From: Escherichia coli
GTDB taxonomy: Bacteria; Pseudomonadota; Gammaproteobacteria; Enterobacterales; Enterobacteriaceae
Assembly: GCF_003334255.1 (NCBI RefSeq)
Contig: NZ_QOWU01000111.1
Length of the DNA: 4,153 nt
Reading direction: 5' to 3' (one strand)
Shown: one piece after another, positions 1-4,153 of the stretch
Numbering within the stretch: the stretch's first letter is position 1
Layout of the letters: every line of letters begins with the position of its first letter
Notes under the pieces: generated by a model
What the model saw: the letters and a program-made list of their open reading frames with translations, nothing else
What the model was told of the DNA's origin: nothing
Database searches by the model: none
Made by a program: the position numbers and the translations under genes

Positions 1-114
1 ACGCGAGGCATCGTCTTAACGAGGCACCGAGGCGTCGCATTCTTCAGATGGTTCAACCCTTAAGTTAGCGCTTATGGGTTCAAGTCCCCGATGGCGGTCC
101 ATTATCTGCATCAT

Positions 115-191
115 GCGTTGTTAGCTCAGCCGGACAGAGCAATTGCCTTCTAAGCAATCGGTCACTGGTTCGAATCCAGTACAGCGCGCCA
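115..191 (+). tRNA. tRNA-Arg, anticodon TCT (decodes AGA), 77 nt with encoded CCA
   Basis: Hand-folded cloverleaf. Acceptor 115-121 GCGTTGT pairs with 181-187 ACAGCGC (one G-U pair). D stem GCTC 124-127 / GAGC 137-140. Anticodon stem ATTGC 142-146 / GCAAT 154-158 with 7-nt loop CTTCTAA, anticodon TCT at 149-151. 5-nt variable loop. T stem ACTGG 164-168 / CCAGT 176-180 with loop TTCGAAT. Discriminator G188, CCA 189-191. Resembles the argO/argN-type tRNAs carried in lambdoid late regions (from memory, not searched). Confidence 0.85.
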
Positions 192-298
192 TATTCATTC
201 TTCCAGATTCCTTTCGGCAGAGCCTTATACTGAAATATACCTGGCTCAGGATATTGTTGAAAATATTATATGTTTGTCAAAAATAAAAGTTCTGTTAA

Positions 299-655
299 GT
301 GTTGATTGAGTGTTTGTTATACGGTCTAATGGTTTTTTCAGCATTAAATATTTATCATTCATATGGTGTGGGTAGAGTGAATATTGATGAGGCGTCGGGG
401 TGTTTCATCCTTAGGCAGCGTATTGATATAGTCAATGCAGAACGAGCAAAGGCCTTCAGCCGTTTGACAGTTTTGTTCTGTACTCCTGATCGTCTTTCGG
501 GAAGAGACGTTATTATTCTGAATAGTGATGCTATACAGAGGGTTTGCGATGAGTTCATGGTGGCTAATTCAGAATTATTTGCTCTTGTTCAGGAGTACAA
601 CAGAATAGCCAGGACCTGTGGTATGGATGAACTTCGGATTACTCATCTGGGGTAG
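299..655 (+). CDS. hypothetical protein (118 codons as drawn; true start uncertain, candidates GTG299, ATG329, GTG377)
   Basis: Open frame from the six-frame track ending at TAG 653-655. No convincing Shine-Dalgarno in front of any candidate start. 6 of 11 Arg codons are AGA/AGG (3 AGA, 3 AGG), directly beside a tRNA-Arg(TCT). AT-rich promoter-like stretch 250-298 upstream. No domain recognised by eye. Confidence 0.3.
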   Translation: MLIECLLYGLMVFSALNIYHSYGVGRVNIDEASGCFILRQRIDIVNAERAKAFSRLTVLFCTPDRLSGRDVIILNSDAIQRVCDEFMVANSELFALVQEYNRIARTCGMDELRITHLG

Positions 656-735
656 ATACATATCTGGATTATCACCGGTTACGGTAAAAAGTGATTGCTT
701 ACTGTTTTTGTGAATGGCATTGCAGCAGCCGGATA

Positions 736-822
736 ATGTCAGTGCTGGCTGACGGTGTGCTGGTGGCGGGTGTGGTGGTTGCTGCTTTCCCGTTGCTGAA
801 AAAGAAAACGCCAGACTGTTAG
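736..822 (+). CDS. candidate small hydrophobic peptide, 28 aa (MSVLADGVLVAGVVVAAFPLLKKKTPDC); frame is open back to GTG691, which would give 43 aa
   Basis: ATG 736, TAG 820-822. One uninterrupted hydrophobic stretch of about 17 residues followed by KKK, typical of small single-pass membrane peptides (type I toxin-like or leader-like). GC-rich, E. coli-like codon choice. Only a weak SD (GGAT/CCGGA) upstream. Below the ORF-track length cut-off, so found by reading. Confidence 0.2.
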   Translation: MSVLADGVLVAGVVVAAFPLLKKKTPDC

Positions 823-1047
823 CCGGGTATCAGTTAGCGGGAGAAATTTTTAAATACTTCACAATTCAGGCGGTTGACTGTTGTCTGGTTTGCGGGGAGT
901 TTGTTAAAAGAAACTGGCATGGTGAATCCCCCTGTGCGGAGGGGCAATCAGCGAGTAGGTATATGGGATAATCGCGGATTCAGGTGCTGGTACTGAATTC
1001 ACCGGGAGGCACCCGGCACCATGCAATGGCACATAGCGCCACTCTCC

Positions 1048-1083
1048 AGCCCCTCTCCGGAGGGGCTGTTTATATTGATTTTG
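1048..1083 (+). terminator. Rho-independent terminator candidate, plus-strand orientation
   Basis: Perfect 8-bp GC-rich stem AGCCCCTC (1048-1055) / GAGGGGCT (1060-1067) with 4-nt loop TCCG, followed by GTTTATATTGATTTTG. On the minus strand the same hairpin is followed by GGAGAGTGG (no U tract), so it looks unidirectional. Confidence 0.5.
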
Positions 1084-1102
1084 TCAGATGTGAGTAAACT
1101 CC

Positions 1103-1438
1103 TTATGGACTTTGTTGTTTTAGCCCATAAGGACATATTTGCAGAGTGCAACGGTTATTAAAGCATTCATTCAATACGTTATCTGTATTTGTAGGGCATT
1201 CCTGGCTGTTTTTGATTAAATTCCAGAATGTTTTATTGAATGGTACTACGTTGTAAATGGTTACAGGCAGCACTTTGTTATTGAGCATGATGCCTGTGTG
1301 AGTCAGTGTAAATATACTTTCAGGAGGTAAGAAAGCATCCGATTGATACCAGATTATTAATTTTATTTTACTCCATATGACTGAAAAAGATATTCCGCAT
1401 GATGGCTGGATAACTGTATCAATCACAATCCACTTCAT
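1103..1438 (-). CDS. hypothetical protein, 111 aa, AT-rich moron-like gene convergent with the late operon
   Basis: Only long ORF in a roughly 30-35% GC block (hand count of subsegments) where the plus strand is littered with stops in all frames. SD AAGGA about 6-7 nt upstream of the ATG at 1438 (minus-strand reading AAGGAAACTAA-ATG). Cys-containing C-terminal segment ([26 protein letters not shown]). No family recognised. Confidence 0.4.
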
Positions 1439-1478
1439 TTAGTTTCCTTGTTTATGCCTTGCTGGTGATGTTCTGAAA

Positions 1479-1505
1479 AGTATAAATGATATTTTTGATT
1501 GTAAA
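1479..1505 (-). promoter_or_regulatory. possible sigma70 promoter for the minus-strand 111-aa ORF
   Basis: On the minus strand: -35-like TTTACA (plus coords 1500-1505), 15-nt spacer, -10-like TATACT (plus coords 1479-1484), about 40 nt upstream of the ATG at 1438. AT-rich context makes chance matches likely and the spacer is short. Confidence 0.2.
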
Positions 1506-1683
1506 CCATAGATCAGAATTATTTTTCTGATGTTGTTTATTGTTTATTTAAATGCAGGGTGGTTTATATCTCGTCTTGTAGTTTATCCATGCATATCTGC
1601 TTGATGATGAGGTTTTTAATTAAGGTATGGTTTTGTGTTTTTTCTGTATTACATGTCAGGTATTTTAAAGAATCATTTTTCAG

Positions 1684-1887
1684 ATGGTGGAAAGAACCAT
1701 GGCATTTAAACACTATGATGTTGTCAGGGCGGCGTCGCCGTCAGATCTTGCGGAAAAGCTGACACATAAACTGAAAGAGGGCTGGCAGCCGTTTGGTAGT
1801 CCGGTGGCCATAACCCCTTATACCCTGATGCAGGCGATTGCAGCAGAAGGTGATGTGGTGGTCAGTGGTGCAACTGAGCCGGAGTGA
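1684..1887 (+). CDS. DUF1737-like small phage protein (67 aa from ATG1684; alternative start ATG1699 preceded by GGTGGAAAG)
   Basis: Sequence MAFKHYDVVRAASPSDLAEKL...GWQPFGSPV resembles, from memory, the DUF1737 domain that occurs as small standalone prophage proteins and as the N-terminus of nanS-p-type esterases found between Q/stx and S in lambdoid prophages. Stop TGA 1885-1887. Confidence 0.6.
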   Translation: MVERTMAFKHYDVVRAASPSDLAEKLTHKLKEGWQPFGSPVAITPYTLMQAIAAEGDVVVSGATEPE

Positions 1888-2042
1888 TACTACGTCATCG
1901 TACTGGCCCGGCATTCCAGGCCATAAAAGACGGTCTGGCAGTGGGACTAAATGCACTGACGCTGACGGATATTACCAAAAATGCAACGTATGGCGTTGAG
2001 ATAGAAAGTCTGGTGCTGGAGATAAATGCACCGGCATCATCA
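1878..2042 (+). pseudogene. possible 3' remnant of a larger gene (frame shifted relative to the DUF1737 ORF)
   Basis: A different frame is open from 1878 to TAA 2040-2042 and translates to a protein-like tail (...[50 protein letters not shown]) with no ATG start (only GTG1884). Together with the upstream DUF1737 ORF this looks like an internally deleted multi-domain gene. Could alternatively be a small overlapping ORF or chance. Confidence 0.3.
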
Positions 2043-2130
2043 TAAAAAGTGAGCCAGTCAAATGGAAGGTATCGTTAAACTCACCGGTAGTGTCAGTGGG
2101 TCGTCTGAGACGCCTGCATGAGTTATCAGA

Positions 2131-2160
2131 GCCATCAGTACTTAACTGGTGGCTTTTTTA
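2131..2160 (+). terminator. Rho-independent terminator immediately upstream of the holin gene
   Basis: 8-bp stem GCCATCAG (2131-2138) / CTGGTGGC (2146-2153) with one G-U pair, 7-nt loop TACTTAA, followed by TTTTTT (2154-2159). Confidence 0.6.
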
Positions 2161-2194
2161 TTGTTGTCAGCTTCCGGATAACGGGAGACGGGGT

Positions 2195-2410
2195 ATGTAC
2201 CAGATGGAAAAAATCACAACAGGTGTGTCATACACCACGTCAGCGGTGGGAACGGGCTACTGGTTCCTGCAGTTGCTGGACAGGGTTTCCCCGTCTCAGT
2301 GGGCGGCAATAGGCGTGCTGGGGAGTCTGCTGTTTGGGCTGCTGACATATCTGACTAACCTGTATTTCAAAATCAAAGAGGACCGGCGTAAGGCGGCGCG
2401 GGGAGAGTAA
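2195..2410 (+). CDS. S: class II holin (phage 21 S21-like pinholin), 71 aa, probable dual start Met1/Met4
   Basis: Protein [71 protein letters not shown] is near-identical in the C-terminal two thirds to phage 21 S as I recall it. Two TMDs (a Gly/Ala/Ser/Thr-rich TMD1 and a hydrophobic TMD2) with a charged C-tail. SD GGAGA before ATG2195, second in-frame ATG at 2204. The ORF-track entry 2090..2410 is the same frame, but its extension runs through the terminator hairpin. Confidence 0.9.
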
Positions 2411-2414
2411 AGTG

Positions 2415-3305
2415 ATGAATAAAAAATATGAACTGGTTGTTAAGGGGATAAATAATTACGGGGATAAGGTTACTGTTACTGTGAAGCCGGAAGGTGACGG
2501 GCAAGCGTCGCTGTTGTTGCCAGATGTGGCGATTAGTCTTGACCGTACTGAAGGTGCCACGCTGGAGTTTTACGAAGCTGAGGCGAAAAAGCAGGCGAAG
2601 CAGTTTTTCATGGATGTTGCTGCCGGGTTATGTGAAGGGGATGGTCCGTTGCCGGAAAAGCGCCCCGTAATTTTAGAGGCGCAGGATGTGTTGATAACCT
2701 ACAAAGGAAAGCTACCGGGAAGAATTACTTGTTCTCTGAAGATGCCGCCGTCAACACTGCGGTCAGAAAAAGATGATGTTGAATCACGTATTGAAAAACT
2801 GGAGAGCTACGTCGTTGAGCTGAATAAGAAATGGTCGATATTGGTGCCTTCTGGCGATGAAAAGCAGTTTGCTGCGTTTGACGATTATTGTCGGAAAGTG
2901 ATGAGCAGAAATCTCGCAGAGTGTTTCAGTATTCATAATGATAATTTCAGTGACCCGGAATGGGAGTGTAACCGGCCATCCTTTGTTGTATCCGGTGATG
3001 CTGGGAAAATAACCATCTCAGAAAATGGGAAAGTAACACCTCCATCGCACCAGCACAGTGAGGAGCTCATTGAATTTGCCATTGATTACCTGAAGAACAA
3101 TAAAAAGCAGGGGCTGATGAAGCGCGTTGGCCGTTGCATGGGATATCTGCAGGTAGCTGCTGAGATTGAAGCGCTGGCCAGTGGTGCTGATAAGGATGCA
3201 ATTGTGCGGGAGGCTCTTCTTCGTGATTTTAATACTCCACCCTTTAAAAAAGTGCCGGCTTACTGGCTTCATCCGGGGCTGACTTATCTTAAAGTGCGTA
3301 TTTAG
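2415..3305 (+). CDS. hypothetical protein, 296 aa, inserted between holin and endolysin (function unknown)
   Basis: Long clean ORF with ATG at 2415 (GTG at 2412 also in frame). SD GGGAGAG at 2401-2407 sits 7 nt upstream and overlaps the last codons of S, whose TAA stop (2408-2410) lies between SD and start, i.e. translational coupling. No signal peptide or TM segment and no catalytic motif recognisable by eye. Stop TAG 3303-3305. Confidence 0.7.
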   Translation: MNKKYELVVKGINNYGDKVTVTVKPEGDGQASLLLPDVAISLDRTEGATLEFYEAEAKKQAKQFFMDVAAGLCEGDGPLPEKRPVILEAQDVLITYKGKLPGRITCSLKMPPSTLRSEKDDVESRIEKLESYVVELNKKWSILVPSGDEKQFAAFDDYCRKVMSRNLAECFSIHNDNFSDPEWECNRPSFVVSGDAGKITISENGKVTPPSHQHSEELIEFAIDYLKNNKKQGLMKRVGRCMGYLQVAAEIEALASGADKDAIVREALLRDFNTPPFKKVPAYWLHPGLTYLKVRI

Positions 3306-3341
3306 TGGGCCAGGGACAGCGGCTGAATATTTAATATATCC

Positions 3342-3875
3342 ATGAACACCAAAATCAAATACGGCCTGTCGGCTGCCGTTCTGGCGCTGATTGCCGCTGG
3401 TGCGCCTGCGCCTGACATTCTCGACCAGTTTCTGGATGAAAAGGAAGGCAAGCACACCACAGCATACCGTGATGGTGCGGGTATCTGGACCATCTGCCGA
3501 GGTGCCATCATGGTGGATGGTAAGCCTGTGATTCCTGGCATGAAGCTGTCGAAGGAAAAATGCGACTGGGTTAACACTATCGAACGGGATAAGGCGCTGG
3601 CGTGGGTGGAGAAAAACATCAGAGTGCCACTGACCGAACCCCAGAAAGCGGGGATCGCGTCATTCTGTCCGTACAACATTGGTCCCGGTAAGTGTTTCCC
3701 GTCGACGTTTTACAGACGAATTAATGCTGGTGATCGAAAAGGTGCCTGCGAAGCGATTCGCTGGTGGATTAAGGACGGTGGCAGAGACTGCCGTATTCGT
3801 TCAAACAACTGTTACGGTCAAGTATCCCGTCGTGACCAGGAGAGCGCGCTGGCGTGCTGGGGTATCGACAGATAA
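3342..3875 (+). CDS. R: SAR endolysin (phage 21 R21-type lysozyme, T4-lysozyme fold), 177 aa
   Basis: N-terminal weakly hydrophobic Gly/Ala-rich signal-anchor-release segment (GLSAAVLALIAAGAPAP). Catalytic triad spacing E35-x8-D44-x5-T50 (EGKHTTAYRDGAGIWT) seen directly. Overall very close to lambdoid/Stx-phage R proteins as I recall them. No strong SD upstream (36-nt gap after the previous stop). Confidence 0.92.
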   Translation: MNTKIKYGLSAAVLALIAAGAPAPDILDQFLDEKEGKHTTAYRDGAGIWTICRGAIMVDGKPVIPGMKLSKEKCDWVNTIERDKALAWVEKNIRVPLTEPQKAGIASFCPYNIGPGKCFPSTFYRRINAGDRKGACEAIRWWIKDGGRDCRIRSNNCYGQVSRRDQESALACWGIDR

Positions 3876-3965
3876 GCAGAATATTTTGCTGAAAAATGAG
3901 GAATGGCCACGCGGGCGGATAACACGAAATCCTGCGAACTGGCGAAACGTAAGTGAATAAAAGTA

Positions 3966-4008
3966 AAAACCCCGTTTGTTGGCACCAAGCGAGGTTTTGT
4001 GTTTCTGA
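3966..4008 (+). terminator. weak candidate stem-loop/terminator downstream of R
   Basis: AAAACCCCG (3966-3974) can pair with CGAGGTTTT (3990-3998) with one mismatch around a 15-nt loop, followed by GTGTTTCTG. The stem is A/U-rich at its base and the loop is long, so this is marginal. Confidence 0.2.
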
Positions 4009-4031
4009 CCTTGAGTAAGGCAAGGGAGAAC

Positions 4032-4153
4032 ATGGCGAAGTATAAACGAATTCTGTTGAGGTTGACTATGAAAAATGGCCTTGAACTGAAAGCGCCTGTA
4101 ACTGATGACATCAGCAGAGCACTGGCTTTTGCCATTAAGTGGGTGGCGGTCGG
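4032..4153 (+). CDS. hypothetical protein, 5' partial (runs off window end); occupies the slot between R and the expected spanin genes
   Basis: ATG4032 preceded by purine-rich SD AGGGAGA (4023-4029). Frame open to the window end (MAKYKRILLRLTMKNGLELKAPVTDDISRALAFAIKWVAV...). N-terminus is not TM-like, so not an Rz i-spanin. In Stx-type prophages an antirepressor-like gene sits between R and Rz (recollection), which may be what this is. Confidence 0.45.
   Translation, partial: MAKYKRILLRLTMKNGLELKAPVTDDISRALAFAIKWVAV

Follow-up and report, generated by a model that had tools for sequence, protein, structure and literature searches.

Introduction

Shiga toxin-converting (Stx) phages have already been described as systems that combine a pinholin with a predicted signal-anchor-release (SAR) endolysin (PMC8136144, PMC10462455; Pinto et al.). 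The holins of Stx2a phages belong to the P21 holin S family, and S of phage H-19B is entered in TCDB as a pinholin of that same family (PMC10462455). In phage 21, the longer product of the holin gene, S21-71, is an antiholin because the positively charged residue of its N-terminal extension impedes externalisation of the first transmembrane domain (TMD1; PMC9636201, PMC4749879, bioRxiv 10.1101/2024.01.23.576932), and a basic residue between the starts forms part of the field's working definition of a dual-start motif (PMC9671378, PMC9636201). The literature that we searched contained no explicit treatment of the dual start in the holins of Stx phages, 933W, H-19B or PA-2.

Here we analyse a 4,153-nucleotide (nt) stretch of Escherichia coli contig NZ_QOWU01000111.1 (assembly GCF_003334255.1; hereafter “the window”), and in particular positions 2195–3875, which hold a holin gene (S) and an endolysin gene (R). 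A preliminary description, made from the sequence, had read this interval as a pinholin–SAR-endolysin module whose holin has two in-frame starts without the extra positive charge found in phage 21, and had suggested that holin/antiholin discrimination might work differently or be absent. The classification proves correct but already published, the holin being the known S of phage 933W. Our analysis further suggests that both starts are probably used and, with moderate confidence, that the longer product is not a charge-based antiholin.

Results and Discussion

The window holin and its closest relatives

The S gene has in-frame ATG codons at 2195 and 2204, 9 nt apart (ATG1 and ATG4, encoding Met1 and Met4), which open products of 71 and 68 amino acids (aa; Table 1). 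Its product matches Pfam PF04971, “Bacteriophage P21 holin S,” over residues 5–67 (8e-33) as well as the PHROG holin families phrog_9876 and phrog_20, while no NCBIfam family was matched by S or by the YdfR-family protein encoded downstream of it. A gap-free alignment gives 77% identity between S and its phage 21 counterpart (S21), and S of phage 933W is 100% identical. Its second transmembrane domain (TMD2, residues ~36–57) is strongly hydrophobic and the sole segment above the Kyte–Doolittle threshold; TMD1 (residues ~8–28) is weakly hydrophobic and rich in Gly, Ala, Ser and Thr (11 of 21 residues vs. 12 of 21 in S21, by hand count), with the same profile in S21; and the C-terminal tail that follows TMD2 is highly charged. 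All three residues of the TMD2 motif G40-x3-S44-x3-G48, a face that we take from work on S21 to line the pinhole, are present in the window, and a 25-sequence holin alignment shows no variation at G40 and S44 and little at G48 (≥90% conserved). Based on this homology and on the pairing with SAR-type endolysins, S would form small (~2 nm) depolarising pinholes without releasing a cytoplasmic endolysin. A canonical lambda-type holin is ruled out by the two transmembrane domains and by membership in PF04971.

These data agree with the earlier reading of S as a 71-aa class II holin with two transmembrane domains and in-frame Met1 and Met4. The comparison with phage 21 had taken S21 to begin MKSM, which is correct: an S21 query matched the phage 21 genome OL657228 at 100%, where S21 reads MKSMDKISTG... 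and its products of 71 and 68 aa are annotated as antiholin and holin, respectively. The two holins are alike in length, in Met1 and Met4, in the TMD2 G-x3-S-x3-G motif, in the C-terminal tail and in having an upstream hairpin that sequesters the Shine–Dalgarno (SD) element, but the extension is MKS (i.e., with Lys2) in phage 21 and Met-Tyr-Gln in the window, where, as had been noted, no basic residue lies between the two starts. Of the features that define a dual-start motif, S therefore has two close in-frame starts but not the intervening basic residue, and its 71- and 68-aa products are equal in net side-chain charge.

Phage 933W, the Stx2a phage of E. coli O157:H7 EDL933 (AF125520), shares the complete S protein, MYQM included, and a leader in which the hairpin stem, both SD-like elements and the two ATGs are near-identical to those of the window; differences are confined to the hairpin loop (ATAA vs. 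ATTG) and to sequence further upstream. In the Stx1 phage H-19B (AF034975), S is 90% identical over 71 aligned positions and the DNA is identical from codon 3, but ATA stands in place of ATG1 behind a different 5′ leader, which leaves the 68-aa product as the only possible one; H-19B S is indeed annotated as 68 aa. On the contrary, EssQ of the K-12 Qin cryptic prophage has the basic MKSM extension, unlike the window holin.

Alleles of the N-terminal extension

The absence of a basic residue is not peculiar to the window. Among 120 holin cluster representatives surveyed at the protein level, the extension is basic in 55 (MKSM, MYRM, MLRM, MHRM, MMKM, MKFM or MKM) and non-basic in 45 (MYQM in 35, MDQM in 4, MNQM in 3, MFQM in 2 and MHQM in 1), while 14 representatives begin at Met4; the four MDQM clusters amount to 989 member sequences. 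At the DNA level, viral contigs were scanned for the 20-mer starting at Met4, an anchor that avoids gene-calling bias, and 121 distinct contexts were recovered. The codons preceding ATG4 were ATG-TAC-CAG (MYQ) in 86 of these, ATG-GAC-CAG (MDQ) in 6, ATG-AAC-CAG (MNQ) in 5, and ATA-CAT-CAG—the H-19B allele, with no start codon and a different leader—in 24 (~20%). A first search for related loci had returned only 99–100% identical loci, and the diversity described here came from the pattern scan and a second query.

In other clades, the corresponding codons are ATG-TAT-CGA-ATG (MYRM), ATG-TTA-CGC-ATG (MLRM) and ATG-AAA-TCN-ATG (MKSM). A separate lineage with holins beginning MYQMDKLTTG... (starting at ~2501 in loci L247 and L250 and at ~957 in L251), which resembles a Cronobacter sakazakii cluster, also has no basic residue. 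It reads ATG-TAT-CAA-ATG, with CAA where its nearest relatives have CGA, a single transition away, and this suggests a second, independent Arg-to-Gln change. Lack of the basic residue appears from these comparisons to be a trait of the E. coli clade whose holins continue MEKITTG and of at least one other small lineage, and the non-basic extension is most likely derived from a basic ancestor. In the E. coli clade it looks like a derived, relaxed state, and close relatives go further, either with an acidic residue 2 (MDQ) or with loss of ATG1 (ATA).

Initiation signals at the two starts

Both starts are plausible in the window allele. Specifically, the element GGGAG lies 7 nt from ATG1, an ideal spacing, and a second SD-like element, GGGGU, is separated from ATG4 by 9 nt (2195–2203); the predicted duplexes with the anti-SD sequence have energies of −7.4 and −6.4 kcal/mol, respectively. 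Phage 21, in comparison, has one strong SD. GGGAG falls within the 3′ arm of a leader hairpin and GGGGU outside it (Table 1). Folded one by one, 23 distinct leaders (20 from viral-contig loci, plus those of the window, phage 21 and the H-19B type) all have the SD within a hairpin's 3′ arm, in a conserved position, with stems that vary in sequence (CCG/CGG, CGC/GCG, CAC/GUG). Compared by minimum free energy with 300 shuffles per leader, 15 of the 23 were matched or exceeded in stability by ≤5% of shuffles, the window by 9%; individual z-scores are weak, and it is the conserved position despite different stems that makes the case. RNAalifold predicted no structure on a MAFFT alignment of the leaders, in which the loops were misaligned. 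The initiation-control apparatus thus appears conserved regardless of the charge of the extension, which is the main argument against ATG1 being junk.

The paired methionines point the same way. M1 and M4 are invariant across 25 diverse full-length holins while residues 2–3 vary, and the pair is not there by chance. In the family alignment, an acidic residue invariably follows Met4 and is itself followed by a basic one in nearly every case (M-D/E-K). The shorter form consequently always starts with formyl-methionine (fMet) followed by Asp or Glu, which—speculatively—could affect N-terminal processing and hence charge.

If only Met4 were used, the gene would yield one product, a pinholin of 68 aa, and ATG1 would be a relic in the leader without function. 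In favour of this, alleles of the H-19B type, from a known Stx1 phage, have ATA for ATG1, 14 of the 120 cluster representatives start at Met4, residue 2 varies freely (Y, D, N, H, F), the SD of ATG1 is buried in the hairpin, and GGGGU, 9 nt from ATG4, is unsequestered. We nevertheless regard it as unlikely, as ATG1 is ideally spaced from GGGAG, is retained by ~80% of contexts and throughout the other clades, and has its counterpart in phage 21, which with the same layout uses both starts. Consistent with this, none of the alignments makes Met4 the sole start of the window allele.

Use of Met1 only or mainly, with the 71-aa protein as the holin and Met4 as an internal methionine, is very unlikely: Met4 is invariant across the holin family and its product is the effector in phage 21, the 68-aa product alone must suffice in H-19B, and the hairpin sequesters the SD of ATG1. 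These points outweigh the stronger and optimally spaced SD-like element at ATG1 and the RefSeq annotation of a 71-aa product. We therefore return to initiation at both ATGs, which is the probable situation in the window.

Is the 71-residue product an antiholin?

As the long and short forms of S are indistinguishable by charge, we rate a weak or absent antiholin most likely, and are moderately confident that the 71-aa product does not act as a charge-based antiholin. This product is most likely a holin itself, with kinetics that are about normal or slightly slower. Of the two outcomes that the preliminary description had left side by side, altered or absent discrimination, the MDQ, MNQ and ATA alleles favour a weakened or absent one; retention of the dual-start architecture speaks against this part of the claim.

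A number of observations weigh against the view just given. The hairpin and two-ATG layout equals that of phage 21, which uses both starts, and for this reason selection may still be keeping two products. The three-residue extension alone could slow the exit of TMD1 without a basic side chain. ATG1 has been kept in about four fifths of the contexts, and all 24 ATA alleles carry one distinct 5′ leader; they probably represent a single recombination event rather than repeated loss. The invariance of M1 and M4 in diverse full-length members belongs on the same side, though gene callers prefer the longer open reading frame (ORF).

Alternatively, the 71-aa form might still be an antiholin independently of charge, either because its longer N-terminal tail slows TMD1 exit or through differential deformylation, in which the fMet-Tyr start of the long form would be deformylated to expose a charged α-amino group and the fMet-Glu start of the 68-aa form would keep its formyl group. 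Peptide deformylase disfavours Asp or Glu next to fMet, and in lambda the formyl group stays on S105 but is lost from S107; a literature search on S105/S107 formylation found nothing relevant. Conservation of M1, M4 and the acidic residue after M4 is what this explanation would lead one to expect, as is the conserved dual-start RNA architecture. However, alleles of the MDQM type, in which the long form starts fMet-Asp and gains a negative charge, are common, and single-start alleles exist. Holin/antiholin discrimination therefore looks dispensable, and we think a charge-independent antiholin improbable. We attach a similarly small chance to the broader proposition that 933W-type S either remains a working antiholin without a basic side chain, by differential N-terminal deformylation or tail length alone, or belongs to a clade that shows stepwise antiholin loss (Arg to Gln, followed by Tyr to Asp/Asn and finally ATG to ATA).

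The weak or absent antiholin that we favour would have modest practical consequences beyond this locus. The window holin is the exact S of the reference Stx2a phage 933W, and lysis timing governs burst size and Shiga toxin release. Should the long product not be an antiholin, the textbook rule that a dual start means holin plus antiholin would not hold automatically for the very common 933W/Qin-type cassettes, and annotations such as “holin/antiholin component S” would be over-interpretations. If stepwise loss were true, Stx phages would time lysis, and with it toxin release, without a holin inhibitor, and could draw instead on the small membrane ORFs before Rz or on the YdfR-family gene (both below). 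The natural allelic series—MKSM, MYRM, MYQM, MDQM, no ATG1—offers a probe of how N-terminal charge controls the exit of a transmembrane helix. The known picture of pinholin/SAR-endolysin lysis is unchanged, and the dual-start variation is a small one inside a well-known family.

The endolysin

R matches Pfam PF00959 (7.7e-23) and is most similar to the endolysins of the 933W/RrrQ type, with 93% identity to R of 933W, 92% to R of H-19B and 88% to K-12 RrrQ, compared with 31% to R of phage 21 (R21). Despite this distance, R and R21 are alike in fold, in the catalytic triad and in a Cys-free, SAR-like N-terminal segment. The triad E35-x8-D44-x5-T50 has numbering identical to that of R21, and a 43-sequence alignment has E35 and D44 in every member and T50 in nearly all. 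Residues 7–24 are 50% Gly+Ala (10 of 18 are Gly, Ala or Ser by hand count) and are preceded by K4 and K6. Both the Gly/Ala-rich anchor and the triad had been noted in the preliminary description and are confirmed here. In the wider family, across many Enterobacteriaceae, 2–3 basic residues are followed by 18–19 uncharged residues of the form LSAAVLxLxxAGA(S/P)AP, and such a SAR-like N-terminus is conserved in 66 of 68 distinct N-termini, the remaining two being aberrant.

A cleavable signal peptide, or some other regulation, would make R something other than a SAR endolysin, and two features invite the thought: A-x-A motifs are present, and the hydrophobic core ahead of Pro22 is only ~15 residues long. 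There is precedent in T4 RI, which has been reclassified from SAR to cleavable signal peptide (PMC8385771). The short core tells against a SAR assignment, as does the fact that SAR behaviour of R is a prediction from homology. In R, however, Pro directly follows both A-x-A motifs, an arrangement that is nearly universal in the family. Proline at +1 is expected to block signal peptidase I, so that an uncleaved anchor is favoured over a cleavable signal peptide.

Structure prediction agrees with an uncleaved anchor. The AlphaFold (AF2) model of R has a mean predicted local distance difference test (pLDDT) score of 86, with residues 11–30 at 95–97, which we read as an N-terminal segment folded onto the catalytic body. 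With Foldseek the model aligned over 174–181 columns with full-length R21 (3hde), and likewise with RrrD of DLP12 (4zpu) and active P1 Lyz (1xjt), but over only 144 columns with truncated R21 (3hdf); 3hde and 4zpu were also the PDB matches by sequence. Moreover, an active secreted lysozyme would cause premature lysis, the partner pinholin would not be expected to pass folded proteins, and R has been predicted to be a SAR endolysin elsewhere (PMC8136144). Taken together, a non-SAR endolysin is improbable, and the combination of pinholin and SAR endolysin is supported by S21 homology, by the triad and N-terminus of R and by its R21-like model, much as first described.

The Cys residues of R stand at positions 52, 74, 109, 118, 136, 150, 157 and 172, none of them before residue 52. 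Because the anchor is thus free of Cys, disulfide control of the P1 Lyz/Lyz103 type was rejected, and R, if regulated, would follow the refolding mode of R21. R has eight Cys and R21 four. Within the R family two are invariant and six nearly so, and C150 and C157 flank or fall within a Cys-containing insertion relative to R21 (residues ~152–158). Residues 141–160 are, besides the extreme N-terminus, the sole low-confidence region of the AF2 model. Periplasmic disulfides in R are possible.

In viral contigs the window holin clade mostly stands beside the 177-aa R type, and in 11 distinct contexts it directly adjoins endolysins 93–95% identical to R21, which also supports the module type.

Proposed course of lysis

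Based on these comparisons, lysis would proceed as follows. By homology to phage 21, late transcripts antiterminated by Q would read through the hairpin upstream of S, and S would be translated from ATG1 (71 aa), from ATG4 (68 aa) or from both. The protein would insert with two transmembrane domains, the weakly hydrophobic TMD1 would then exit the bilayer, and TMD2 would oligomerise through its G40-x3-S44-x3-G48 face into small pinholes that depolarise the membrane. R, exported beforehand by Sec and held inactive by its N-terminal SAR segment, would be freed by the depolarisation, refold as R21 does, and degrade the murein, after which spanins encoded further downstream would complete lysis. 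The timing would depend chiefly on how much S is made, under the SD-sequestering hairpin, and on the intrinsic exit of TMD1.

The interval between S and R

The preliminary description had mentioned neither the spanin genes beyond the window nor the 297-aa YdfR-family ORF between S and R. This ORF is intact, takes up over half of the interval 2195–3875 and has its SD inside the 3′ end of S; RefSeq nonetheless calls it a truncated pseudogene. The protein has an N-terminal DUF1327 domain (6.5e-40) that is 47% identical to that of K-12 YdfR, and matches phrog_1085 over its full length. The same order of holin, YdfR-family gene and RrrQ-type lysozyme occurs in the essQ-ydfR-rrrQ-rzpQ genes of the Qin prophage, where YdfR has 103 aa rather than 296–297. 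In phage 21, by contrast, S, R and Rz are contiguous, and in 933W S adjoins R and ant lies between R and Rz.

Proteins of this type are rare, with only 74 representatives in 1.8 billion proteins, and their distribution is modular and fragmentary. The AF2 model of the window protein (predicted template modelling score 0.39) contains two confident small domains; it had no PDB match by sequence and no significant one by Foldseek. PADLOC returned nothing relevant. In relatives, the S–R interval is empty or holds residues 1–84, 1–112, 1–296 or 120–296 of the protein, and so appears to behave as a hypervariable accessory slot. Among the relatives' loci, the type of holin start showed no association with whether the insert was present.

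Prophage setting and neighbouring genes

The window corresponds to the late region in a lambdoid prophage of E. coli; this prophage is of the 933W/Qin type, and its late-operon lysis genes lie in the interval from S to R. Positions 76–4153 are 100% identical to the chromosome of E. coli G1/2 (NZ_CP060083), and the window is covered to ≥80% in 788 of 5,426 complete E. coli genomes; the best-matching phage records are Stx-converting and related lambdoid phages. RefSeq annotation of the G1/2 prophage gives the order Q antiterminator, three transfer RNA (tRNA) genes, DUF3927, IraM (minus strand), DUF1737, class II holin, YdfR family, lysozyme, two small hypothetical proteins, Rz-type “lysis protein,” TonB-like protein and terminase. 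As in the window prophage, the lysis genes of 933W occupy the late operon downstream of Q and tRNA genes. The Rz/Rz1 spanin genes lie downstream of the window and hence outside the interval analysed.

Table 1. Positions of the lysis genes, their control elements and other features in the window.
Feature	Position	Strand	Basis or remark
tRNA-Arg (two)	25–101 and 115–191	+	RefSeq; tRNA-Ile lies just upstream of the window
Small RNA STnc100 (RF02076)	888–1077	+	Rfam, 132 bits vs. gathering score 47
IraM anti-adaptor homologue	1103–1438	−	
DUF1737 ORF	1684–1887	+	Partial according to RefSeq
Terminator-like hairpin with T-run, 12-bp stem	2128–2156	+	Pattern scan; ~40 nt 5′ of S
Leader hairpin CUUCCG-GAUAA-CGGGAG; SD GGGAG (2183–2187, for ATG1) in 3′ arm	2171–2187	+	RNA folding
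Second SD-like element GGGGU	2190–2194	+	Outside the hairpin; putative SD role
S, class II holin (pinholin family), 71 aa from Met1 (MYQM...)	2195–2410	+	ORF, PF04971
S, 68-aa product from Met4 (MEKITTG...)	2204–2410	+	Counterpart of the S21-68 effector holin
YdfR-family ORF, 296 aa from ATG 2415 (297 aa from GTG 2412)	2412/2415–3305	+	DUF1327 N-terminus
R, 177-aa GH24/T4-lysozyme-type predicted SAR endolysin, RrrQ/933W type	3342–3875	+	PF00959
R codons 7–24, predicted SAR segment YGLSAAVLALIAAGAPAP	3360–3413	+	Composition, hydropathy, family conservation
R catalytic triad codons E35 ... D44 ... T50	3444–3491	+	Regular expression and R21 alignment
Weak terminator-like hairpin	3973–3991	+	Pattern scan only; 3′ of R
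Start of 60-aa ORF with C-terminal transmembrane domain	4032–4153	+	phrog_1115; first of two small membrane ORFs before Rz

The terminator-like hairpin shortly before S is kept in 933W and H-19B, with compensatory changes, and Q-modified RNA polymerase presumably reads through it just before the lysis genes. Further upstream, ARAGORN and Rfam call only the tRNA at 115–191 (anticodon UCU) and not that at 25–101, which may be atypical. The STnc100 match has its 3′ end at a terminator-like hairpin (1047–1068). The IraM homologue and the DUF1737 ORF fill the slot held in Stx phages by stx and nanS-p; no toxin gene, stx included, was found within the window.

Unlike 933W, the window prophage has two small membrane ORFs before Rz. 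In locus L002, where they lie at 8957–9139 and 9154–9285, they encode proteins of 60 and 43 aa with one predicted transmembrane domain each, which match phrog_1115 and phrog_4906, respectively, both PHROGs with function unassigned. They could be accessory lysis or membrane proteins.

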